Source: a virus. Taken from it: a stretch of DNA of 58,801 bases. A model generated the notes under the pieces. That model searched no databases. It was given only the letters and a program-made list of their open reading frames with translations, and was not told the origin of the DNA. Location: IMG/VR virus record IMGVR_UViG_3300028453_000003; one strand, 5' to 3'. Shown here piece after piece: positions 2,088 through 58,746 of the stretch (position 1 is the stretch's first letter; the number at the start of each line of letters is the position of its first letter). The translations under genes and the position numbers were made by a program.

Positions 2088-2899
2088 TAGTTACCATCTC
2101 CATTAATAAATGCGATTGCATCTTCGATTTGTTGTTGGTATTGGCTACAATCACTACCACCACCAAGACTCTCTAACTTAATCTCTTTCACATATATGCT
2201 ATCGGATTTTGCAATTGATAATGCAGGGTATGCACTTGTCAAATATGTACTATCAGCGATTGTAACAACCTTTGAGAACACTTCTGTATCACTACTGTTG
2301 TAGATTTTGAATGTTAAGGTTGTACCCTCTTTTGATAATTCGTATGTGTTGTAGTCATTAGTGGTGAGGTTGCTTACTGCTATATTTGAAGAAATACCTC
2401 CCCCAGTTATATTGGGGTTGTACAATAGAAGGTGTTTTGTGCTTGTAGAGTTTGGTTGGAATAAACCGACACCTTTTTCTTGTGCTTGGGCTATTCCTAC
2501 TCCACCACCTTTATCTGATGAAGAGGAAACTGCTCTTATCTTCGCAGTAAGTTTCCAATTATCCAAACCAGCTTGTACTGGTAAACAACAGGTACTGAAA
2601 TTTGCATTGCTATTAGTTAGCACATAATGGTCTGTATCAAAACTTAATGAGGTATTCACAGTTGATGATGAAGCCCATATCTCATAAAAGTTAGTATATT
2701 GGCTTGTTTGATTAGTTGCACAACTATCCTCAAATAATGTAGTAGAGCCACCCCCACCAGTTATTTGGAGTACCTTTGAAGCCAAAGTGGTAAGCCCATC
2801 TGATGCACTTGCTTGTACCCCTTTTTGAGTAATATTACTTGCTAATGTTTCCCCTAACTGACTCAAAGAGCCATTTAAAGTTGTAATATCATTAACCAT
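2087..2899 (-). CDS. Tail fibre / receptor-binding protein
   Basis: The N-terminal adaptor is shared with 1437-2087. The C-terminal DAIAFING matches DAIAYIN of 2913-3725. Confidence 0.5.
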   Translation of the reverse strand: MVNDITTLNGSLSQLGETLASNITQKGVQASASDGLTTLASKVLQITGGGGSTTLFEDSCATNQTSQYTNFYEIWASSSTVNTSLSFDTDHYVLTNSNANFSTCCLPVQAGLDNWKLTAKIRAVSSSSDKGGGVGIAQAQEKGVGLFQPNSTSTKHLLLYNPNITGGGISSNIAVSNLTTNDYNTYELSKEGTTLTFKIYNSSDTEVFSKVVTIADSTYLTSAYPALSIAKSDSIYVKEIKLESLGGGSDCSQYQQQIEDAIAFINGDGN

Positions 2900-33250: not shown

Positions 33251-33424
33251 GTGAAAAAGAAGCCCAAAGAAGCAGTATTCGTATACCAACGAACAATGGT
33301 GTCAACCCCAAATGTAGACAAATTTCAAGCCCAAAGAAACAATAAAATAAAAAAAGAAGCCAAAAAACCATATGTTTGGTAAACAATAAAACAATTCGTA
33401 AAAACACGAATGAATAATTTCGAC

Positions 33425-33524
33425 CAACTTTGTCAAAAAATCGCAGATGTTTGTATGAAAAACCACCAACTTTGTCAAAAAAATGCAGATGTTTGTATGA
33501 AAAACCACCAACTTTGCAAAAAAC
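33425..33524. repeat. Tandem repeat, 42-bp unit, 2.4 copies
   Basis: caactttgtcaaaaaa(t)cgcagatgtttgtatgaaaaaccac occurs twice, followed by a partial third copy. Confidence 0.9.
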
Positions 33525-33976: not shown

Positions 33977-34312
33977 ATTCTATTCTTATATATCTTAAAA
34001 AATTGTAGTATATTGTCTTAATATACTATACTGTACAGATAATAGTTAAATGTCTTATCATTACTTTTCATTATTATGTTATTGTCTTTTTGTCCGTGTT
34101 GATCCCTCAATAATTTTTTCTTATTAATTTCCTTATTGTTTTTTTTGTTTTTTGAGTTGTGTATTAATTTAGTATTTTTTTATTTTATTTTGTTGTGTTG
34201 TTGTGTGTTTAATTGTTTTTTTGTTGTTAATATAACAATTGTTATAAAATAGGTTTAAAAAAAAGAGAAAAAATAAACTTTTATATTTGATCTATTAAAT
34301 GAGATAATTTAT

Positions 34313-34627
34313 TTAATTTCCAAAAATTGAAATAATATCTTTTTGAATGTCATAAAATGTTTTTTGGGTTAAACCATAACATTTAATTTTATATTGGGTT
34401 TCGTTTTCGATGTCGTCGATTTTTATGATAATTTCTAAATCATTATAATAAATGTTTATTAATTTAAAGTTTCTATGGTTTCCCATATCCTCTTTTATTT
34501 GATTTAATCCAATTTGAGAGGCTAACCATTTTAAATGATTGTAAGCCTCTTTTATATTGATTCTTTCAAATGATTCGTATTTATATTTGGTTATTGGTTC
34601 AATTTCAATAATTTTTATGTATACCAT
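34313..34627 (-). CDS. AT-rich cassette protein 1, unknown function
   Basis: ATG at 34627 follows the conserved leader ttgagagttgaaaaaa. The track's MKK prefix is a TTG artefact. A T-rich terminator lies downstream. Confidence 0.6.
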   Translation of the reverse strand: MVYIKIIEIEPITKYKYESFERINIKEAYNHLKWLASQIGLNQIKEDMGNHRNFKLINIYYNDLEIIIKIDDIENETQYKIKCYGLTQKTFYDIQKDIISIFGN

Positions 34628-34680
34628 TTTTTTCAACTCTCAATAGTTTTTTAGTTTAAGTGCCTTTTTAAATTGTAACA
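34628..34680 (-). promoter_or_regulatory. Conserved promoter-leader module, copy 1
   Basis: Minus sense reads tgttacaatttaaaaaggcacttaaactaaaaaactattgagagttgaaaaaaATG. Confidence 0.6.
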
Positions 34681-34731
34681 TTTGAAAAAGACAAAAGAAA
34701 AAATAATAAGAATTTTAAAGTAATAATTACT

Positions 34732-34950
34732 TTAAAAATCTTTTAGTAAATTGTTTATGTTTTCATTACAAAAGTATTTTAATTGATCCTTATCATATTT
34801 TAATATTTTTGTAAAATCTGTATTTTTATTTAATTGAAAAAGAATTATTATTATATCTCTAATTTTATTTTGTGTATTGTTATTATCTAATAGGAATAAG
34901 TTTAATAAAATTCTTAATTCAATTAGATTTATTAATAATTCTTTTTTCAT
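34732..34950 (-). CDS. AT-rich cassette protein 2b, unknown function
   Basis: 72 aa, with its ATG overlapping the upstream TGA (ATGA). Confidence 0.5.
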   Translation of the reverse strand: MKKELLINLIELRILLNLFLLDNNNTQNKIRDIIIILFQLNKNTDFTKILKYDKDQLKYFCNENINNLLKDF

Positions 34951-35723
34951 ATTAACACAACATTATTTTTATATTGTAATGTTTTAAGGTAGTTTTCTAT
35001 ACTGTCCTCAAAATCATATAATAAAATAGTTTTGTTGTTATATTCAACATATGGATCAACATAATTATAAACCTCAGTATTTTCATAACATTCATAATTT
35101 AAATTGAAAATTAAATCATTACATTTATTATCATTTTGTATTATGATATTATCAAATAAGAATGATAATTCATTACATTCATATTTTTCAATAGGTTTAT
35201 TTATCCAATAGTTATAATCATTTGATAAAAAAGATATAAATCCATCATAAGAACTATTTTTTTTATGAATATAGTTTTCCATATTTTCAAAAGATAATAC
35301 ATAATTTTTTATTAGATTTAATGTTGTATAATTAGTTTTTAGGAATAATCCATTTTTATCAGTTCTGTAATTGTAATACTTAGGACTGTCTATATAACTG
35401 TCTTTTAATTCTAATAAAAATTGAGGATTTTCTATAATATCATTAGGTAGTAAATCTTTTATTAATTTTAAATATAAATTGCTAAATTCTTTTGATATAT
35501 CATTTTTATAATTTTCAAAATTTTCAAAATTATAATTAACTTCAATATCATTTTCATTTAAAAAAGAATATTTATCTAACAATATATTTTTGTCCTCAAC
35601 TTCATAATCAATAAATTGATCAGAATTACAAAACATACTTTCATAAAATCCATAAAAAACATTTATATATAGTTCTTTTGTTATGTTTTCATTTTCTTTA
35701 TTTTCAAAATTATATTTATTCAT
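34947..35723 (-). CDS. AT-rich cassette protein 2a, acidic N/Y/D/E-rich, unknown function
   Basis: ATG at 35723 follows the conserved leader. 258 aa. Confidence 0.6.
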   Translation of the reverse strand: MNKYNFENKENENITKELYINVFYGFYESMFCNSDQFIDYEVEDKNILLDKYSFLNENDIEVNYNFENFENYKNDISKEFSNLYLKLIKDLLPNDIIENPQFLLELKDSYIDSPKYYNYRTDKNGLFLKTNYTTLNLIKNYVLSFENMENYIHKKNSSYDGFISFLSNDYNYWINKPIEKYECNELSFLFDNIIIQNDNKCNDLIFNLNYECYENTEVYNYVDPYVEYNNKTILLYDFEDSIENYLKTLQYKNNVVLI

Positions 35724-35780
35724 TTTTTTCAACTCTCAAAATTTTTATAGTAAAAAGTGCCTTTTAAGTCTTTAACAACT
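35724..35780 (-). promoter_or_regulatory. Conserved promoter-leader module, copy 2
   Basis: Minus sense reads gttgttaaagacttaaaaggcactttttactataaaaattttgagagttgaaaaaaATG. Confidence 0.6.
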
Positions 35781-35928
35781 AAAAAAGACAAAAGAAAAAA
35801 TAAAAAATAATTAGAATAAAAATTCTAATTCAAATAATTTAAAAATAACTTTACAAATGAAAAAATAAAAAATAAAAAATAAAATTAATGTTGTATTATT
35901 GCTTATCATTTTTTCAAAATCCTTTTTT

Positions 35929-36327
35929 TTATTCAAATGTTAATTGATATTTATTTGAGGATAAGACAAAAACATTATTAAATTGTAAATTGCTTTTGTT
36001 TTCATAATTTTTCTTTAATTCTTTTTCTATAAATCTATAAAAATTAAAGAATTGTTTTTCATTTAGATAAATATCAATACCATATAATGACTTATCAAAA
36101 TACTCTTTATTTATTATGTATTGATCTTTTGAATAAATTGTTAAATCTAATCGTAATCTATAAAAATCAAAATGTAAAGTAAACCTTTTAAATTTAGGAT
36201 TTTCAAAAATTGCTTTTATTTGATTTTCATTACATTTTAAAGGATTTTCTAATTCATAAGAATATACATAATTTTCTTTATTTTTGCTTATGTTTTCAAT
36301 ACATAACTTTTTTAATTGTGTTTTCAT
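35929..36327 (-). CDS. AT-rich cassette protein 3, unknown function
   Basis: ATG at 36327 follows the conserved leader. Confidence 0.6.
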   Translation of the reverse strand: MKTQLKKLCIENISKNKENYVYSYELENPLKCNENQIKAIFENPKFKRFTLHFDFYRLRLDLTIYSKDQYIINKEYFDKSLYGIDIYLNEKQFFNFYRFIEKELKKNYENKSNLQFNNVFVLSSNKYQLTFE

Positions 36328-36378
36328 TTTTTCCAACTCTCAATAGCTTTTAATTTAAGTGCCTTATTGATCTGTAAA
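36328..36378 (-). promoter_or_regulatory. Conserved promoter-leader module, copy 3
   Basis: Minus sense reads tttacagatcaataaggcacttaaattaaaagctattgagagttggaaaaaATG. Confidence 0.6.
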
Positions 36379-36508
36379 AATCTAAATAAGACAAAAGAAA
36401 AAAAGATAAAAACAATTAAATTTTAATTGCTTTATCTATATAAAATAAAATTAGTTTATTGTTTTAGGTAGTAACCTTTAATTTAATTAAAGTTTTACAA
36501 TGAATACT

Positions 36509-37057
36509 TTATTTTTTGAATAAATTGTAAATATCATTTGTACTATTGAAAATATAATTTTCCATAAGTTTATCTAATGAAAATTTAGTATTTATCATAT
36601 ACCATGATAAACCTAAATGATCTATACATAAAATATATAAATCGTCTTTAGAATTATAAAGTATATCATAATTGCAATAATCCTTAAATAAACATAAATC
36701 ATTTTCATTAATAATAAAGTATTGAAAATATTCTTTATAAGTTAAACTTATAAAATCATAATAATGATTGTGTAACATTAAATTTAAATCGTCCTCAGAT
36801 AATTCATTTAAATCAGTATTTTCAAAATCATAAATATAAGAACTGTAATTCTCAAAAAATTCAATTATAGTTTCATTATCATAATTTTGTATAAATTCAT
36901 AACTTAAATTATCAATATTTGAATTTTGTAAATCATAAGGTATTAAATTTATATCAAAATAATCGATAAAATTGCCTAAACTTAATACATTTTCTTTTAG
37001 TTCGTCTTTACTTATTTTCATTATTTTAGTTTTTAAGTAATATTTTTCATTTTCCAT
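36509..37057 (-). CDS. AT-rich cassette protein 4, strongly acidic, unknown function
   Basis: ATG at 37057 follows the conserved leader. The protein is D/E/N/Y-rich with no Arg. Confidence 0.6.
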   Translation of the reverse strand: MENEKYYLKTKIMKISKDELKENVLSLGNFIDYFDINLIPYDLQNSNIDNLSYEFIQNYDNETIIEFFENYSSYIYDFENTDLNELSEDDLNLMLHNHYYDFISLTYKEYFQYFIINENDLCLFKDYCNYDILYNSKDDLYILCIDHLGLSWYMINTKFSLDKLMENYIFNSTNDIYNLFKK

Positions 37058-37111
37058 TTTTTCAACTCTCAAAAGGTTTATAATAAAAAAGTGCTTTATT
37101 TGTCTGTAACA
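37058..37111 (-). promoter_or_regulatory. Conserved promoter-leader module, copy 4
   Basis: Minus sense reads gttacagacaaataaagcacttttttattataaaccttttgagagttgaaaaaATG. Confidence 0.6.
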
Positions 37112-45236: not shown

Positions 45237-45971
45237 TCATTCAATATCTGCAAAGTATTGGTGGCATTTCACAAGTCTATTCTGATTTACTGTTATCAAC
45301 TGCCAACTTGGTGGCTCTAATTGTAAGTATTGTTGGTCTGGGTAACCATCATAACCTAAAAAATGCCCACAATACCCATAAAATATTTGCTTATAACCAG
45401 TAGGAAACCTTTTAAACTCCGACCACCAAATATTTTTATGATTATGACCCTCAAGGTACATATCTGCAACAATATGTTCAGTATTTCTCTCCAATTTCCC
45501 CATAGCCAATGGTTTGGTCTTTGATGAACCTTTACCATGTCTACAAAAAATACTAAAGTCAAAATCATTAATAGAAAATGTATCTAAATTCTGATTGCAA
45601 TAAGTAATCCCCAATTCTCTACACATATCTTTAACAATATTGAAACCAAATTCCTTGTTTAAACGATATTCGTGATTACCAATACAATAACAAACAATAT
45701 CCTCTTTAAATGGTTTGATATTATTAATAAAATATTCTCTCTGCTCTTCAACAGTACAATCTTGCCCATAAGCACTATCCCCAACATTCTTACTTGCAAC
45801 TTCCAACATATCACCAAGCAAATAGATTCGGCGATTTTTAAGAGGTTTTATAGTTTTAAGCATTTGCTTAAACAAATCCTTATTAAAAGTAGGATTCCCT
45901 ATATGCAAATCTGAAATAGGAATGATATTCACTACTGTTTTTGAGTTCAAAGCATATTGATCCAACACCAT
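45237..45971 (-). CDS. Calcineurin-like metallophosphoesterase
   Basis: Motifs DLHIGN, GDMLE, GNHEY, RHGKG and GHNH in canonical order. Confidence 0.8.
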   Translation of the reverse strand: MVLDQYALNSKTVVNIIPISDLHIGNPTFNKDLFKQMLKTIKPLKNRRIYLLGDMLEVASKNVGDSAYGQDCTVEEQREYFINNIKPFKEDIVCYCIGNHEYRLNKEFGFNIVKDMCRELGITYCNQNLDTFSINDFDFSIFCRHGKGSSKTKPLAMGKLERNTEHIVADMYLEGHNHKNIWWSEFKRFPTGYKQIFYGYCGHFLGYDGYPDQQYLQLEPPSWQLITVNQNRLVKCHQYFADIE

Positions 45972-46615
45972 TATATATCACCATCTAATTTTTTCCATTC
46001 AAATCCTTGTTTTTTAACTTCTTTTTCTAAATCTTCTAAATTAACCCTTGAAATATGTTTATGGTAAATTTTCCCATTATTATCTCTTAAGTTAATAACA
46101 TATCTCCAAAGGAATCCTTGTTTGCAACTATTACATTTAACTGTTGAAACTCTATAATATCCAGTAGTGTTCGTGGAATTATGTTTATTTGTACAAGATT
46201 TAGTCATCTTTATCTTATCTTCTATGCTCCAAATTTTTCCAAAATTAGGATGCTTTTCACCACTCATAGCATTACTTATTTTGTCTTTCGCTTCTTTAGA
46301 ATGGTGTTTCCCATACATTGGATGAAGTTCCCCACATCTCCCATAACAATGATGCTCTTTTCCATATTTTGCATCATTTTTTCTATGAAATTTATCGTGG
46401 ACATCTTTTGGAACACATTGTAAATTTTGGATTCGGTTGTCTGTTTTATTGTAATTAATATGGTGAATTACACAATTTTTTGGAATTGGTTTTCCATAAT
46501 GTTCTTCCCATATCAAACGATGTAATAACTGGTTATTATTCCCTTGCTTTTGTGAACTAATTTTATAATACCCATAATTATTCAATGTAGCATTTCCATA
46601 TTTCGTTTCAATCAA
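45971..46615 (-). CDS. HNH homing endonuclease with NUMOD-like repeats
   Basis: HHINYNKTDNRIQNLQCVPKDVHDKFH, plus GKEHHCYG..GKHHSKEAKDKIS..GEKHPNFG. Paralog of 46938-47441. Confidence 0.75.
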   Translation of the reverse strand: MIETKYGNATLNNYGYYKISSQKQGNNNQLLHRLIWEEHYGKPIPKNCVIHHINYNKTDNRIQNLQCVPKDVHDKFHRKNDAKYGKEHHCYGRCGELHPMYGKHHSKEAKDKISNAMSGEKHPNFGKIWSIEDKIKMTKSCTNKHNSTNTTGYYRVSTVKCNSCKQGFLWRYVINLRDNNGKIYHKHISRVNLEDLEKEVKKQGFEWKKLDGDI

Positions 46616-46621
46616 TCTTAT

Positions 46622-46954
46622 TCACCTTTTCTTTTTGTTTATTCCTAATCTTCGTAGTTCGCCTCTGATTTGTCTTAATTCATCATCAAAGTTTTCTTTT
46701 CTTTTTTCGGTTATGTATCCAGTTCCATTTTCTTTTGGTTTTATCCATTTGGTTCTTTTCCATTCGTTTTTTTGGTCTTGCAATGCTTTGGCACTACAAT
46801 CTTTAGTACAATATACTTGCCGATGATGTGTTTTTGCAAAATATTGTCCACAAAATTTACATTTGCAAATTATACTGGCACGATTAAAATGGAAAACACA
46901 ATTGGGTGGTGCATTTTCTTTTATTTTCTTTATATCTTTATAAATTATCTTCAA
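46622..46954 (-). CDS. Basic zinc-finger protein
   Basis: CKCKFCGQ...YCTKDC. Confidence 0.45.
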   Translation of the reverse strand: MKIIYKDIKKIKENAPPNCVFHFNRASIICKCKFCGQYFAKTHHRQVYCTKDCSAKALQDQKNEWKRTKWIKPKENGTGYITEKRKENFDDELRQIRGELRRLGINKKKR

Positions 46955-47441
46955 ATTTATACCACCTTAATCCTTTTTCTCTAACTGCTTTTTCTAATTC
47001 AACAATATTAGTTCTTGAAATAGTTTTCCTATTCCCATCTGCATTAGTATATTCATATCTAAATATGAAACCTTGTTTGCATTTGGAACATTTATTTTTA
47101 TAAACATTGAAAAAACCAACTGTATTCTTGGATTTACTCATTTTAAAACAAGAACTCATCTGATGTTTATTTCCTTTTTTATGTAATTTCAAATGCTCTT
47201 CCTTTTTTAAAAGAGATAAATTACAAATGCAATTATTGACCCTATTTTTATCGTTATGATGAATTTGATAACCTTTGGGGATTTTACCATAATACTTTTC
47301 AAATAATAATCTATGGAAATATTGATGATGGTTACCCTCTTTTCTACTTGTAATTCGATAATACCCATTATCATCTAATTTAGCATTTCCCCATTGGGTA
47401 TGAATTGTATTATTTGGTTTTATTTTTAATTTATACATCAT
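46938..47441 (-). CDS. HNH homing endonuclease (paralog of 45971-46615)
   Basis: QIHHNDKNRVNNCICNLSLLKKEEHLKLH. Both the N- and C-terminal regions align with the neighbouring HNH gene. Confidence 0.7.
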   Translation of the reverse strand: MMYKLKIKPNNTIHTQWGNAKLDDNGYYRITSRKEGNHHQYFHRLLFEKYYGKIPKGYQIHHNDKNRVNNCICNLSLLKKEEHLKLHKKGNKHQMSSCFKMSKSKNTVGFFNVYKNKCSKCKQGFIFRYEYTNADGNRKTISRTNIVELEKAVREKGLRWYKFEDNL

Positions 47442-52451: not shown

Positions 52452-52892
52452 TCACCTCACACTAAATCTTTTCATATATTCTGCAAAATCGTAAGCATTT
52501 GCATTAGCAACCCCAAAAAGAGAATGGTATTTATTATGACAATATTTACACAATGTAATACCATTACTTAATTCCACTCTTAAAGAGGGATAATTTTCAT
52601 ACCCATAGATATGATGAGCAACTAAATGTTTATCTTTTGGAAAACCACAACATTGACAAACTTTATCCCTTTCCTTAACATCAGAAACCCATTGTTGATA
52701 AATGGGAGAATTTCTTGTTACTGAACGACCATCTATTTCATCATAATCTGCTTTCTTGATTTCTTCTATTGTTTCATATTCATTAATAAGAAATTCTTCT
52801 CTGATTTTAAGATGTTTTTCTCTTTTCTTTAATTCTTGCATCTTCCTTGAAATTTCTAAATTAGGATTATTTCTATAAAAAATGGATTCCAT
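52452..52892 (-). CDS. HNH endonuclease
   Basis: CQCCGF...HLVAHHI...NGITLCKYCHNKYH. Confidence 0.75.
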   Translation of the reverse strand: MESIFYRNNPNLEISRKMQELKKREKHLKIREEFLINEYETIEEIKKADYDEIDGRSVTRNSPIYQQWVSDVKERDKVCQCCGFPKDKHLVAHHIYGYENYPSLRVELSNGITLCKYCHNKYHSLFGVANANAYDFAEYMKRFSVR

Positions 52893-55253: not shown

Positions 55254-55288
55254 AAAAAAAGCGAAAAACCTAATTAAAGATTTTTCGC
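55254..55288 (-). terminator. Hairpin plus T7
   Basis: gcgaaaaa/tttttcgc stem (55261-55268/55281-55288) enclosing the stop codon, followed in minus sense by seven T. Confidence 0.55.
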
Positions 55289-55828
55289 AATTGGGAACAT
55301 CTTCCCATTCTTATTGACACCACAATGTACCATACATTCGTAACCATCAAGTGCCTCTTCAAGTTCTTCAACAGTAAACTTGATCCCACCAGTAAAATCG
55401 GATGGTAACTCACCACTTGATATGAAACAAGGTCTGACAAACTCTGCCAATGCAGAGTTGCCACCACATACAAGTACATTTTCCTCTTCCTTATCATGAT
55501 TGCAGAAAAGGAAAAAGGTAACTTCTTGAGCATCATCGATAATCTCAATTTCTTCAACTTCATTTCCAAGATTATCTTCAGTCATTACAACTTTGCCATC
55601 ATCATCAAGTTTCCTTGCACGACATTTTGGCATATCATCAAGGATTGACATTTTAAGGGTAAATAAGGTGTATTTACCAAATTGACCCTCTTTCTCACTA
55701 ATGTACACTTTTTCTACACCACAATGCACACCATCTTTCTTATGCCAACTTTTGACAGAAGATAAAAAGGTATTCATTGTTACTCTATCTTCATCGAATG
55801 AAGATTTTTCTTCTAACATTTCTACCAT
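55274..55828 (-). CDS. First protein of the replication operon, function unknown
   Basis: ATG at 55828 follows gaggtgaaaaaa. The track start at 55837 is GTG. Confidence 0.5.
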   Translation of the reverse strand: MVEMLEEKSSFDEDRVTMNTFLSSVKSWHKKDGVHCGVEKVYISEKEGQFGKYTLFTLKMSILDDMPKCRARKLDDDGKVVMTEDNLGNEVEEIEIIDDAQEVTFFLFCNHDKEEENVLVCGGNSALAEFVRPCFISSGELPSDFTGGIKFTVEELEEALDGYECMVHCGVNKNGKMFPIAKNL

Positions 55829-55893
55829 TTTTTTCACCTCTGAATAAATGTATAATTGTAATCACAAGCAATACTCATTAAACTTGTGATGGA

Positions 55894-55941
55894 TAAGCAA
55901 GTTGGGAATCGAACCCAAATCCAAGACACCAGTCTTTGCTT
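55894..55941 (-). ncRNA. tRNA top-half-like minihelix A
   Basis: Minus sense: AAGCAAA / 16-nt connector / TTGGG-TTCGATT-CCCAA / CTTGCTT-A. The T-arm is canonical and there is no D or anticodon arm. Confidence 0.5.
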
Positions 55942-56021
55942 ACAAGGTTGATATTATGAATAGAGTTTAGAACAAAAAATTGTTCAAGGATGGGGAAAAT
56001 AAGCAAAAACCCATCCTTAAA

Positions 56022-56071
56022 GTGCTTGGGTAGGAGTTGCACCTACTGGATCAACTGTCTTGACCAAGCAC
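56022..56071 (-). ncRNA. tRNA top-half-like minihelix C (degenerate T-loop)
   Basis: Minus sense: GTGCTTGG / TCAAGACAGTTGATCCA / GTAGG-TGCAACT-CCTAC / CCAAGCAC. Confidence 0.4.
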
Positions 56072-56108
56072 GAGAGGTCTAAAATTATGAAGTGCCACTA
56101 CAATTTCA

Positions 56109-56249
56109 GTTGGGTAGTGGTAGCAGTAACTCCTTTAAAAATTTTAAAAGGGGTGTAATTGATTTATATGAGTAATTTTTGGGGTGATTTAACAATATGA
56201 ACAAAGATTCGTGTTTAATCCATCGGAGTTACTGCTATCACTATCCAAC
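56109..56249. repeat. 25-bp inverted repeat enclosing 91 nt
   Basis: gttgggtagtggtagcagtaactcc (56109-56133) pairs with ggagttactgctatcactatccaac (56225-56249). The two mismatches are G-T on the plus strand. Confidence 0.85.
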
Positions 56250-56416
56250 CAAATGGTTGGTGGTAAAGTTCGGATAATAAAATAATTAATCTTTTAGTCA
56301 ATTTTTGCATTATTTTAATAATTCTTATTTCAATACTCTACGAACCTTACCAATTGAGTATTCATAGAAAATCAAATTATCTAATTTTTAATAGTTTTCA
56401 TATTCTATAAAAAATA

Positions 56417-56695
56417 GGGTAGCATAATGGTGTTCTCCACCACTACCCCTTTTCCAATCCGAATAGGATTAGTCATTCAATTGCATTAATCAAATCTGAA
56501 AGTTTTTATAATCATGATTACATTAATTATTAAAAGAATGCAATTGAAAGCCATAGCCAAGTGTTGAAACTTGGAGTTGGAAAAAAATGTAAAAGCCAAC
56601 TTGCCGACCATCTATGGCAACCATTTTCCCACTTATATAACACCTTTAATATTCGGAATTGCTTGGAGAATATGGTTAAATGCTCCAAACAATCC
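56417..56695. ncRNA. Cluster of abutting perfect hairpins and a three-way junction (candidate structured RNA)
   Basis: Nested hairpin at 56417-56448. Hairpin aatcc/ggatt at 56456-56470. 11-bp stem at 56477-56487/56537-56547 with an inner 12-bp palindrome. 7-bp closing stem at 56550-56556/56612-56618 around two 6-bp hairpins. Extended hairpin at 56655-56695. Confidence 0.45.
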
Positions 56696-56698
56696 AAT

Positions 56699-56747
56699 GA
56701 GCGATGGTGGGAATCGAACCCACCAAGACAATCACCAGTTAATCGCT
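56699..56747 (-). ncRNA. tRNA top-half-like minihelix B
   Basis: Minus sense: AGCGATT / AACTGGTGATTGTCTTG / GTGGG-TTCGATT-CCCAC / CATCGCT-C. Confidence 0.5.
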
Positions 56748-56912
56748 CTATTTTTGGAGGAAAAATCTAATTGACATTTTAGATTGTAAAAATTGTTACT
56801 AAAAATAAAAATGACATGCACCATACAAGTGAAACACAAGCAACTATCTTGAAATCTCTTGTACGAACCTTTACACCATTATCCCTTTGAGGATATAATG
56901 TTTTAGGTTGCA

Positions 56913-57032
56913 TTATTTACCACCTTTGTAATCTTTTCTTTGAAGTTTTAAAATCTGTACAAAGGCATCGTACTCTTGTGGGGTCATATCGACTCTCACG
57001 AATTTATTAGAAATAGTTTTATCTACTTTCAT
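56913..57032 (-). CDS. Ribbon-helix-helix protein (Cro-like candidate, 39 aa)
   Basis: gaggtgaaatttt RBS. Translation: MKVDKTISNKFVRVDMTPQEYDAFVQILKLQRKDYKGGK. Confidence 0.5.
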   Translation of the reverse strand: MKVDKTISNKFVRVDMTPQEYDAFVQILKLQRKDYKGGK

Positions 57033-57149
57033 AAAATTTCACCTCTACTTTCCAAAGATTCTTTTGGTATGGCAGTACCCATCTAAATCTTCGTTGATAA
57101 TACTTTCATCAAAGTAATATATAAATGTTTGCATAATGCTTTATAGTAA

Positions 57150-57571: not shown

Positions 57572-57643
57572 AATGAGTATTAGAGAGCATTTGAAAACTA
57601 AAATTATAACAATTGTTATATTGTAATTTAAAAAAAGAGAAGA

Positions 57644-57673
57644 GAATGTTGATGTTATAATTCTTCAACATTC
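57644..57673. terminator. Hairpin between convergent genes
   Basis: gaatgttga/tcaacattc stem (57644-57652/57665-57673). The loop contains the int stop codon. Confidence 0.4.
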
Positions 57674-58746
57674 ACATCAAATACTTGAACCAATTCCAAC
57701 AACTTGTCGATTTTTTGTTCGTTCCTTTCAAATTCTCTTCGTTGTTGATTAATAACACTTGATTCGTGGTTTATAAGTACATTGTTCATTGCATTTATGT
57801 ACTTATGTTTCAATTCTACGGGGTTCTTCTTCAAGTAGATTTCCCTTATCTTGCCTCTGCTCCTACCTTGGATGAAATCAACTTCGGCTTCAGAAAGTGC
57901 ATTTTCACCATTGCAAAGCATAGTTGCATTGAACTTTCGTAGCATATGGCTTCTGAAACGATTGTAGATTCCGACTTTGCCTAAACCGAGAATATCATTG
58001 ATTTGACCCATTAAGTAATTGATGTAATTACTGCTCACTTTGAATAGTGGTGAGTCGAGTTCAAGTTTACGATTGGCATTTAGGAGCATTTTCACTATTT
58101 CGTGTACTGCTTCAGGTGAACAGAATGTGTAATAATATTCATTCACTTTTCCTCTTTTCATTGTGAAAGTTGGTATTATCATTTCTTCACTTGAGTATAA
58201 TTCAATTAGCATTTCTTTGATTGATTTGCTTTCATCAAGTTTTCCACAACTTTCAAGGAACTGCCCAACAGTCAAACTTAAACATTCTGCCTTTGCCATT
58301 CCACTACTGCATTGTAGTAGTATAAATGCTCTCATCATTAGGCTACTGAAGTCAAGGGCTTCTCTAATGATTGATTTTGTTGGCAAGTCTTTGAAGCCTA
58401 TTGGTTTTTCTTTTCTTATGTTTTTATCGCTCATATATGGTAGTGTTGGTATTTCTATTTCAAAGTGGCGATAGAAACTTTTTACTTGTGTCATCTTGTT
58501 TTGGATAGTGTGTTTGCTATCTTTTTCTACGATGTATTTTCGGTAGTTTACGAGTCTTTGTCTTAAGGTTCTTTTTTTGAGTCTGATGCCCTCTTCTTCT
58601 TCGTTGTCTGCTTCTTCGATGAGTTCATCGAGGCTCATTTGGTTGTATTTTGTATATTCTCTTAGGCTTGTTTTGTATTGTTTTATGGTTGCTTTGGAAA
58701 GGTTTCTTTCTGCAACAAATTGTTCAAAGTAATGACTTTCTTTCAT
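57655..58746 (-). CDS. int: Tyrosine recombinase / integrase
   Basis: N-terminal SAM-like domain (LSKATIKQYKTSLREYTKY). C-terminal RSHMLRKFNATML (HxxR) and GRSRGKIREIYLK (catalytic Tyr). Confidence 0.85.
   Translation of the reverse strand: MKESHYFEQFVAERNLSKATIKQYKTSLREYTKYNQMSLDELIEEADNEEEEGIRLKKRTLRQRLVNYRKYIVEKDSKHTIQNKMTQVKSFYRHFEIEIPTLPYMSDKNIRKEKPIGFKDLPTKSIIREALDFSSLMMRAFILLQCSSGMAKAECLSLTVGQFLESCGKLDESKSIKEMLIELYSSEEMIIPTFTMKRGKVNEYYYTFCSPEAVHEIVKMLLNANRKLELDSPLFKVSSNYINYLMGQINDILGLGKVGIYNRFRSHMLRKFNATMLCNGENALSEAEVDFIQGRSRGKIREIYLKKNPVELKHKYINAMNNVLINHESSVINQQRREFERNEQKIDKLLELVQVFDVNVEEL

Follow-up and report, generated by a model that had tools for sequence, protein, structure and literature searches.

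What can transfer RNA (tRNA)-like folds contribute to a viral genome if they are unable to decode? This question is raised by the virus record IMGVR_UViG_3300028453_000003 (58,801 nt; the whole stretch of DNA analysed is called the window below), on the minus strand of which an earlier note, made from the letters alone, had described three short elements, A (55894-55941), B (56699-56747) and C (56022-56071), whose letters read exactly as given there. A and B are, as their structure supports well, tRNA-like minihelices composed of an acceptor stem plus a T arm which, because an anticodon arm is lacking, cannot decode. With a probability of roughly 0.5, both are transcribed, cis-acting tRNA mimics of ~48 nt which, via a tRNA-like elbow, would recruit ribonuclease P (RNase P), tRNase Z (RNase Z) or the CCA-adding enzyme to cut or stabilise the flanking RNAs.

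In both elements, a 7-bp acceptor-like stem is stacked on a T stem of 5 bp that includes the G53-C61 pair and carries a UUCRANY loop, as in canonical tRNA. In the register indicated by relatives, the outer strands TAAGCAA/TTGCTTA of A and GAGCGAT/ATCGCTC of B form 7/7 Watson-Crick pairs, followed by a 1-nt linker or a sixth T-stem pair, to which the linker base often contributes in relatives. The architecture proposed in the earlier note is retained, its exact register is not, as the seventh pair is mismatched there and relatives favour a position one base further 5'. The short hairpin that had been seen in the connector is recovered as a conserved stem of 2-4 bp that encloses a UGGU loop; the same hairpin, NNC-TGGT-GNN, is present in copies from unrelated phages. 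This mini-hairpin is likely a stand-in for the D loop, whereby its GG would dock on the T loop to build the tRNA-like elbow. The motif GGTTCGATTCC occurs exactly twice in the 58.8 kb, once in A and once in B, and with at most one mismatch 3 times (0.24 expected), a number reached in 0/100 shuffles. A covariance model (R1) was seeded on copies from other contigs, in a uniform-geometry alignment with three rows hand-trimmed by 1-3 bases, a MAFFT alignment having misplaced the 5' strand, and was run unfiltered against both strands of the whole window. It matched B (31.8 bits, E=1.3e-5) and A (29.9 bits, E=4e-5) only; as one seed row is a trimmed orthologue of B and none is of the A type, the match to B is partly circular and the match to A independent. 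At permissive thresholds, the Rfam tRNA models align with both elements end to end with the middle deleted, at 17.4 bits for A and 20.8 bits for B, below the gathering scores of 29 (RF00005) and 47 bits (RF01852, tRNA-Sec) respectively. The TCCA that follows A directly is kept while the stem sequence of A changes, and the B type is followed by ATTGG or TTTGG, like the cyanophage copies described below.

Whether these folds are maintained by selection on pairing can be judged from relatives, which were fetched with the integrase and with an ORF187 profile and comprise six IMG/VR contigs and seven further metagenome contigs from lineages with 63-70% identical proteins. All 13 contigs are collinear across the elements without any junction and share the order integrase, reverse-strand small open reading frame (ORF), two small forward ORFs, B, D (a fourth tRNA-like module), hairpins, a long hairpin, C, A and ORF187; A, B and C, the alignment of which among related viral contigs had been proposed in the earlier note, thus stand in the same order with compensated stems. 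The outer stem of B varies in sequence with pairing kept (GAGCGAT/ATCGCTC, GAGCAAT/ATTGCTC, GAGGCAG/CTGCCTC), and T stems of its orthologues are compensated as well (GGGGG/CCCCC, CGAGG/CCTTG). The same holds for A, with outer stems TAAGCAA/TTGCTTA, TAAGGCA/TGCCTTA, TAAGTTA/TAACTTA and TGAGCATA/TATGCTCA and T stems likewise compensated among relatives. In a model-fitted alignment, 93% of the cells are paired versus 63% after shuffling and at most 53% with the partner strand slid, and 10/12 pairs carry double changes; as the fitted alignment leans towards the model, the test was repeated by RNAalifold on plain MAFFT alignments of syntenic orthologues. For B, the outer stem and the T arm were recovered, with double changes in 5/12 pairs, and for A the outer stem, the 3-bp hairpin with the UGGU loop and the T arm, with double changes in 6/15 pairs. 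The closest annotated Methanobacteriales virus, vir249, was found to hold no copy of the element, and the window region had no DNA match among GenBank phages.

Complete tRNA genes and other known structured RNAs do not account for these elements. ARAGORN at default settings called 0 tRNA or transfer-messenger RNA (tmRNA) genes in the window and in nine relatives; with lowered thresholds and in mitochondrial mode (-ps, -ps95, -mt) nothing overlapped A-D, three low-score calls with -mt -ps all lying at other coordinates, and Rfam at gathering thresholds gave no match in the whole window. The earlier assertion that the minihelices are non-decoding agrees with these scans and with the covarying stems. 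The only call of a complete tRNA by a standard tool, an intron-containing tRNA-Gly(tcc) at 55894-56027 with a 48-nt intron (ARAGORN -i -ps), has two acceptor mismatches and no D arm, its 21-nt 'variable loop' swallows the 5' strand of A, and the calls are inconsistent among relatives. It is contradicted by relative L001, where the 5' and 3' strands of A have covaried and the 5' strand of the tRNA-Gly model is unchanged. A tmRNA is rejected likewise, since ARAGORN finds none and the strands of A and B are joined by only 17-18 nt, as is a bacterial Y RNA (Deinococcus_Y_RNA 16.8 bits versus a gathering score of 80, E=8.5; no extra helix). The ROOL and GOLLD models of Rfam produced no match up to E 10 in 55500-57100 and none at gathering level across the window.

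The integrase-like gene located 0.9-1.8 kb from the tRNA-like elements, which is part of their context and not of the elements themselves, invites a different explanation. T arms, with a 7-nt loop and inverted repeats, are classic crossover sites of tRNA-targeting integrases, and A, B or C could accordingly be cores or remnants of the phage attachment site (attP) of such a tyrosine integrase, acting as double-stranded DNA. A degenerate IUPAC pattern spanning the 25-nt 3' halves (T arm plus 3' strand) of A and B was searched in the genomes of 185,579 species and exact copies of host tRNA 3' ends, a possibility weighed in the earlier note, were not among the matches; the true host strain may be unrepresented in this set, and identity over a shorter core would be possible. 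The pattern yielded five matches, all sequence variants in bacterial metagenome-assembled genomes and none archaeal, four of which lie in ARAGORN-called tRNA genes, three of these tRNA-Leu. Because their 3' halves match no tRNA gene in these genomes, A and B are not regarded as att copies. As the earlier note had argued, the complementary 5' strand speaks against a plain attP fragment, since an att copy has no need of that strand, yet it covaries in the relatives. An integrase search of genome contigs revealed no relative and no provirus, the 13 collinear family contigs show no junction, and similar elements elsewhere flank helicase, psbA and capsid genes, in multiple and strand-biased copies. 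An attachment-site origin is therefore judged very improbable.

Those further copies emerged from a pattern scan of IMG/VR (CTGGTG, 4-22 bases, GGTTCGATTCC), which retrieved at least 120 loci; all figures for the wider class refer to the matches listed. 25 matches fall within ARAGORN tRNAs, and dozens of the remainder exhibit the compact design of A and B, on contigs ranging from low to high G+C. The outer stem has at least 6/7 Watson-Crick pairs in 34% of the motif matches versus 3% with either strand displaced by 25 nt. Members measure 43-50 nt, with strands joined by 11-18 nt, and in the same contigs further copies that do not carry the searched motif have TGG in the connector in 11/14 cases. 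In the stems of 58 unique members, G-U combinations outnumber A-C combinations (26 vs 12), which speaks in favour of folding of the sense strand.

Position and strand of the copies are equally informative. In contig L020, ~10 copies within 10 kb stand on the coding strand, each filling the gap between co-directional ORFs, and contigs L015, L022 and L055 resemble it in copy placement. Outside the family of the window, 43/54 copies have the same orientation as the ORFs on either side and 4 are antisense; many begin 0-22 nt past a stop codon and are followed by the next ORF at a distance of 20-80 nt, as delineated by a crude ORF caller at loci pre-selected by sequence motif. The neighbours are helicases, VG15, psbA and capsid genes, not integrases. 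PHROG and Pfam scans of the multi-copy phages L020, L015 and L022 were uninformative on their identity, and neither L020 nor L031 had a DNA match among GenBank phages. An unannotated copy (38.7 bits) is carried by the cultured cyanophage S-TIP37 (NC_048026.1), where it shares bases with the gp32 stop codon and lies ahead of the major head gene; blastn also matched S-SBP1 and S-RIP1. Rfam at gathering level, applied to 14 class loci, offered no family that covers the element, the sole non-tRNA matches being Glutamine-II riboswitches upstream of cyanophage copies, and in the literature searched no description of the element class was found. As a separate observation, the order psbA, Glutamine-II riboswitch, small ORF, tRNA-like minihelix and major capsid gene recurs in T7-like cyanophages and forms a compound leader which seems unannotated so far (Table 1).

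An encoded CCA is a known anti-determinant for tRNase Z, and its rarity in the wider class (3/58) counts for a processing role. RNase P, tRNase Z and the CCA-adding enzyme are known to recognise precisely the features that are kept here, the stack of acceptor and T stems and the elbow (review: PMC4810234). Because these enzyme-recognised parts are kept, the decoding part is lost and the position is on the coding strand between genes, a function in processing or stability in cis is proposed; among the roles named in the earlier note, punctuation by RNase P and RNase Z appears best supported, by the between-gene placement in other phages. In the window, A-D are all located on the gene strand, downstream of two small ORFs and upstream of ORF187. 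An early transcript from the conserved TATA box would run through the small ORFs, B, D, the hairpins, C and A into the replication genes. Each element would be cleaved by host RNase P at its 5' border and by tRNase Z at its 3' border, after which the CCA-adding enzyme might come into play. In this way one long transcript would yield defined pieces, and the flanking RNAs would receive their ends and their stability, a viral counterpart of mitochondrial 'tRNA punctuation' and the plant-mitochondrial t-elements. Sequence, conservation, covariation, strand bias, placement between genes in other phages and the missing identity to tRNA genes are observed; transcription, the elbow contact and the cuts by RNase P and tRNase Z are inferred.

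Several observations weigh against such a mechanism. Single copies reach only modest thermodynamic z-scores (-0.9 to -3.5), about one third of the copies stack 13 bp and not 12, and the orthologues of B in L004 (2935-2981) and L148 have a 4-nt insertion (CTTG) in the 5' strand of the T stem with the rest of the fold kept, so the T stem may tolerate a bulge. The UCCA after A would inhibit tRNase Z at that very site. The window elements abut ORFs less tightly than the copies in L020, and T5-T7 runs inside the loop of D and after C could end archaeal transcription before A. The crude ORF calling and the pre-selection of loci mentioned above have to be counted here too.

The same structural evidence would equally fit a function in trans, which, although unlikely, is the foremost competing explanation. 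The elements would then be released as small stable RNAs, decoys or effectors, directed at a tRNA-binding factor of host or virus, which they would bind, titrate or redirect; the CCA-adding enzyme, synthetases, elongation factors, modification enzymes and tRNA-targeting defence nucleases are examples of such factors, and the marking of cleavage sites would not be the main task of the elements. The U-CCA found after A in 8/10 variants, as for a finished acceptor end, would suit such a function, as would the clustering of four tRNA-like RNAs in 1.2 kb of mostly non-coding DNA, not tightly between genes, and a conserved 15-nt U-rich loop in D that resembles a binding site. The copies in other phages, on the other hand, stand tightly between ORFs and even overlap stop codons, which fits a role in cis better, and the rarity of an encoded CCA in the class counts against decoys. 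Acceptor sequences vary freely with no conserved identity element (e.g. G3:U70) seen, and among the 29 window proteins scanned none is a virus-encoded tRNA-handling or partner protein. Processing in cis is thus preferred over action in trans.

Element C, for which the earlier note had proposed the same architecture, is a more complex case. Its outer stem covaries and its T arm forms in relatives; the covariance model does not match C in the window, and the minimum-energy fold of C itself favours a competing inner hairpin. Across four distinct lineages, the RNAalifold consensus for C includes the T arm, with double changes in 6 of 12 pairs. In the relatives L005, L148 and L150, C takes the shape of a four-arm cloverleaf; the T arm is the same, four positions of the outer stem GGTTCTTG/CTTGAACC are compensated versus GTGCTTGG/CCAAGCAC in the window, and the element at this position in L006 has a canonical TTCGATT loop. 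Because of these cloverleaves, C of the window is considered a reduced derivative of such a fold. The module D, a tRNA-like three-way junction between B and C, has, inside its outer stem, a linker of 11 nt that contains GG, then the central arm GTTGG/CCAAC and a T-like arm of 6 bp (CCAAGT-TTCAAC-ACTTGG). The central arm closes the conserved 15-nt U-rich loop CTTTTACATTTTTTT (56581-56595; RNA CUUUUACAUUUUUUU), which opens like the anticodon loop of tRNA-Lys(UUU) (CUUUUAC). RNAalifold on the unfitted MAFFT alignment of 6 sequences found 24 pairs, 14 of them with double changes, and among 7 distinct sequences 26 pairs, of which 15 have double changes, 7 are invariant and 5 have a gap or non-pair, mainly in the length-variable central arm. 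The minimum-energy fold agrees with the consensus, and the outer stem exists in the variants GCCATTG/CAATGGC, GCCAGTA/TACTGGC, GTCTGCA/TGCAGAC and GGCTATG/CATAGCC. The L005 orthologue of D is called as tRNA-Lys(ttt) with an 8-nt intron (ARAGORN -i -ps). T loops are non-canonical in C (UGCAACU) and D (UUCAAC), with orthologues having UUCGAUU or UUCGACU, and C and D are regarded as less reduced relatives of A and B. A pairing of the trailer of B (UGGAU) with that of A or with GAUCCA of C was judged by eye and is not supported by covariation in L006.

Such a series from cloverleaf to minihelix, the Lys-like opening of the loop of D and the within-genome copies of L020, which are alike enough to suggest duplication, raise the question whether these elements, clearly of tRNA origin, are tRNA genes in decay or selfish repeats derived from tRNA that have no function today. 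This is deemed improbable, since neutral loss would break the pairing, whereas stems are kept by many double substitutions at only 63-70% protein identity, and the reduced design recurs in unrelated phages with non-random strand and position.

In the window, the elements are embedded in a 1.2-kb stretch between the integrase-like gene and ORF187 that is mostly non-coding, with no ORF of at least 60 aa on the coding strand (Table 1). The long hairpin between D and C comprises 33 pairs, 10 with double changes (RNAalifold), and compensatory changes occur in all family members; it could represent an RNA hairpin or an origin-like DNA structure beside the replication genes. Because this inverted repeat and three further hairpins also covary (RNAalifold), the whole 1.2 kb is densely structured; a second covarying hairpin lies just upstream of that at 56417-56449. 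The hairpin just after C is partly kept, as at 9/12 pairs one or more sequences have a gap or do not pair, and with its T runs it is a possible candidate for an archaeal termination or pause zone. The UGGU mini-hairpin as an elbow mimic, D, the dense structure of the 1.2 kb and the distribution of the A/B type outside methanogen viruses are absent from the earlier note.

Table 1. Positions of the tRNA-like elements and of the surrounding features (window coordinates unless a contig is named).
Feature	Position	Strand	Description
A, tRNA-like minihelix	55894-55942	-	TAAGCAA - A - GAC-TGGT-GTC - TTGGAT - TTGGG-TTCGATT-CCCAA - C - TTGCTTA; in the leader of ORF187, 65 nt upstream of its start codon
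Mini-hairpin of A	55925-55934	-	GAC-UGGU-GUC; compensatory AAC/GTT vs GAC/GTC vs GGAC/GTCC
TCCA directly 3' of A	55890-55893	-	readable as discriminator U (U73) plus encoded CCA; in 8/10 distinct A variants
B, tRNA-like minihelix	56699-56748	-	GAGCGAT - TAA-CTGGTG-ATTGTCTT - GGTGGG-TTCGATT-CCCACC - ATCGCTC; starts 30 nt past the stop of the conserved 44-aa ORF
C	56022-56071	-	outer stem GTGCTTGG/CCAAGCAC; connector with conserved GATCCA; T-like arm GTAGG-TGCAACT-CCTAC
D, three-way junction	56550-56618	-	69 nt; 7-bp outer stem GCCATAG/CTATGGC
Long hairpin between D and C	56109-56249	-	25-nt arms, 92% complementary; 91-nt A+T-rich loop
Hairpin GGGGTAG-TGGTG-GAGAA-CACCA-...-CTACCC	56417-56449	-	18 pairs, 6 with double changes (RNAalifold)
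Hairpin AAGGATGGG...CCCATCCTT just after C	55986-56018	-	with T5 and T6 runs; C-plus-flank fold z = -5.5
Hairpin ATCACAAG...CTTGTGAT	55861-55890	-	separates A from the ribosome-binding site of ORF187; double changes in 4 of 9 pairs (RNAalifold)
TATA-box-like TTTATATA within conserved ACATTTATATATTAC	57114-57128	-	kept in five lineages
Two small ORFs preceding B, same strand	56779-57032	-	39 aa (56913-57032) and 44 aa with hydrophobic tail (56779-56913); kept in all family members
ORF187	55274-55837	-	first replication-module gene, downstream of A; likely start ATG at 55828; no Pfam family matched
Tyrosine integrase-like gene	57655-58746	-	Pfam Phage_int_SAM_1 (23.2 bits) and Phage_integrase (18.7 bits), both weak
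Cyanophage compound leader	L071:2283-2335, L021:8499-8551, L102:1499-1570, L136 (S-TIP37) 2577-2850		

The position directly upstream of the replication module, with primase-like and other replication genes, and the long inverted repeat with its A+T-rich centre also permit the elements to be seen as DNA structures of a replication origin, namely cruciforms or folds of single-stranded DNA, or as transcription terminators; covariation alone cannot separate RNA from single-stranded DNA. This alternative is considered quite improbable. The T-loop sequence and the UGG motif belong specifically to the tertiary structure of tRNA and not to hairpins at large, the excess of G-U over A-C favours one strand, and elsewhere the element stands between structural or metabolic genes. 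A scan for intrinsic terminators returned one consensus site versus 0.7 expected, which consists of the T arm of A followed by CTTGCTTATC, not a U run, and in the trailers of class members U tracts were not found.

The genome itself appears to be that of a tailed archaeal virus. Because its first and last 127 bases are identical, the window is taken as a circular assembly of ~58.7 kb. It encodes terminase, portal and other tailed-virus genes, nearly all on the minus strand; the best annotated match of the terminase is Caudoviricetes sp. vir249 (44% identity; recorded host Methanobacteriales), and an ERCC4-HhH nuclease is compatible with an archaeal host. A Methanobacteriales-like host is thus probable as judged from the genes, and ACATTTATATATTAC is, on the basis of the known methanogen TATA consensus, the presumed early promoter for the small ORFs and the tRNA-like array.

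Some features of the window were noted independently of the elements. The perfect palindrome ATATAACAATTGTTAT at 57606-57621, kept in all relatives, follows a T run shortly behind the stop codon of the integrase gene; it recurs, again together with a T run, at 34231-34266 on the edge of a low-G+C island. It may act as an operator or as a terminator module, or represent the actual attP core. The A+T-rich island itself (34000-37100; 17-19% G+C vs ~35% elsewhere) harbours three ORFs, each after a ~110-nt repeat (34625, 35721, 36325) containing TTTTTTCAACTCTCAA, and resembles a gene cassette that was acquired or duplicated in the recent past. Between 40600 and 43700, several families of 19-35-nt direct repeats with 3-5 copies each (e.g. 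CTTGAAAATCAAATCGTTTCTCATTCAT, on the minus strand ATGAATGAGAAACGATTT...) point to a series of small paralogous genes whose starts are conserved. At 33423-33506, the 42-nt unit ACCAACTTTGTCAAAAAATCGCAGATGTTTGTATGAAAAACC is present in two tandem copies of 95% identity. Three HNH endonuclease genes in the replication and nucleotide-metabolism module (45971-46615, 46938-47441, 52452-52892), one with NUMOD3 motifs, are possible homing endonucleases.

If the proposed processing in cis is extended to all copies, the A/B type would constitute an apparently undescribed, widespread RNA class, a ~45-nt 'elbow plus acceptor' mimic that punctuates operons of double-stranded DNA (dsDNA) phages and archaeal viruses and passes viral mRNA maturation to the host tRNA-processing machinery, and the four modules of the window, at differing stages of reduction, would together with the long hairpin form one ornate 1.2-kb leader RNA ahead of the replication genes. 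This broad formulation is put forward tentatively, at slightly less than even odds. If true, bacterial and archaeal viruses use cut-down tRNA shapes as signals within messenger RNAs, which to our knowledge are known from mitochondria and few eukaryotic transcripts and not as a conserved class of phage elements. Genome annotators would gain a feature that is unannotated even in cultured cyanophages, structural work a natural minimal model of the tRNA elbow, and the design of synthetic operons compact processing tags. Cyanophage S-TIP37 on Synechococcus WH8109 provides a culturable test system. The RNase P of Methanobrevibacter smithii, the RNA subunit of which has been studied in vitro (PMC11724310), allows an in vitro test.

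How do these elements compare with known systems? With canonical tRNA (RF00005, clan CL00001) they share the 7-bp acceptor-like stem, the 5-bp T stem, G53-C61 and the UUCGAUU loop, and the GG motif of A and B could play the part of G18-G19. Unlike canonical tRNA, the elements are devoid of an anticodon arm and a true D arm and measure 43-50 nt. The attP sites of tRNA-targeting integrases have in common with the elements a T-arm-like inverted repeat and, in the window, a nearby integrase; the elements differ by the missing identity to a tRNA gene, the covarying 5' strand, multiple copies, strand bias and no link to integrases in other phages. In phage T7, hairpins between co-transcribed genes recruit a host endonuclease, RNase III, which cuts the polycistronic mRNA and leaves stabilising ends. 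The placement between genes is similar, the copy of S-TIP37 residing just upstream of the capsid gene in a T7-like genome, whereas the two folds have nothing in common and RNase P or RNase Z is the enzyme presumed here. tmRNA and the bacterial Y RNA YrlA (Chen et al., 2014, PMC4201824) also possess the acceptor/T-arm stack and a reduced D region that keeps GG, the anticodon arm being absent or replaced; there, the strands are split by a large insert, an mRNA-like domain or a Ro-binding helix, whereas in the class described here they are joined by 11-18 nt.

The closest likeness is to the plant-mitochondrial t-elements of 'tRNA punctuation' (Forner et al., 2007, PMC1920247) and to mascRNA at the 3' end of MALAT1 (PMC8457004), which are non-decoding like the window elements, consist of acceptor stem plus T arm, and stand in sense orientation at or between mRNA ends, where they serve as cleavage signals for RNase P and RNase Z. 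The window elements, known here from their sequence, share with them the logic of placement and the parts that are kept: the acceptor/T-arm stack covaries with a conserved UGG, which would make the elbow contact, and the sense position is at or between mRNA ends, a likeness that is strongest for the between-gene copies in L020, L015 and S-TIP37. The t-elements and mascRNA are organellar or nuclear, belong to no single sequence family and usually retain a cloverleaf-like outline, whereas the elements described here are found in a dsDNA archaeal virus and many bacterial phages as a compact unit of ~45 nt with a UGGU mini-hairpin.

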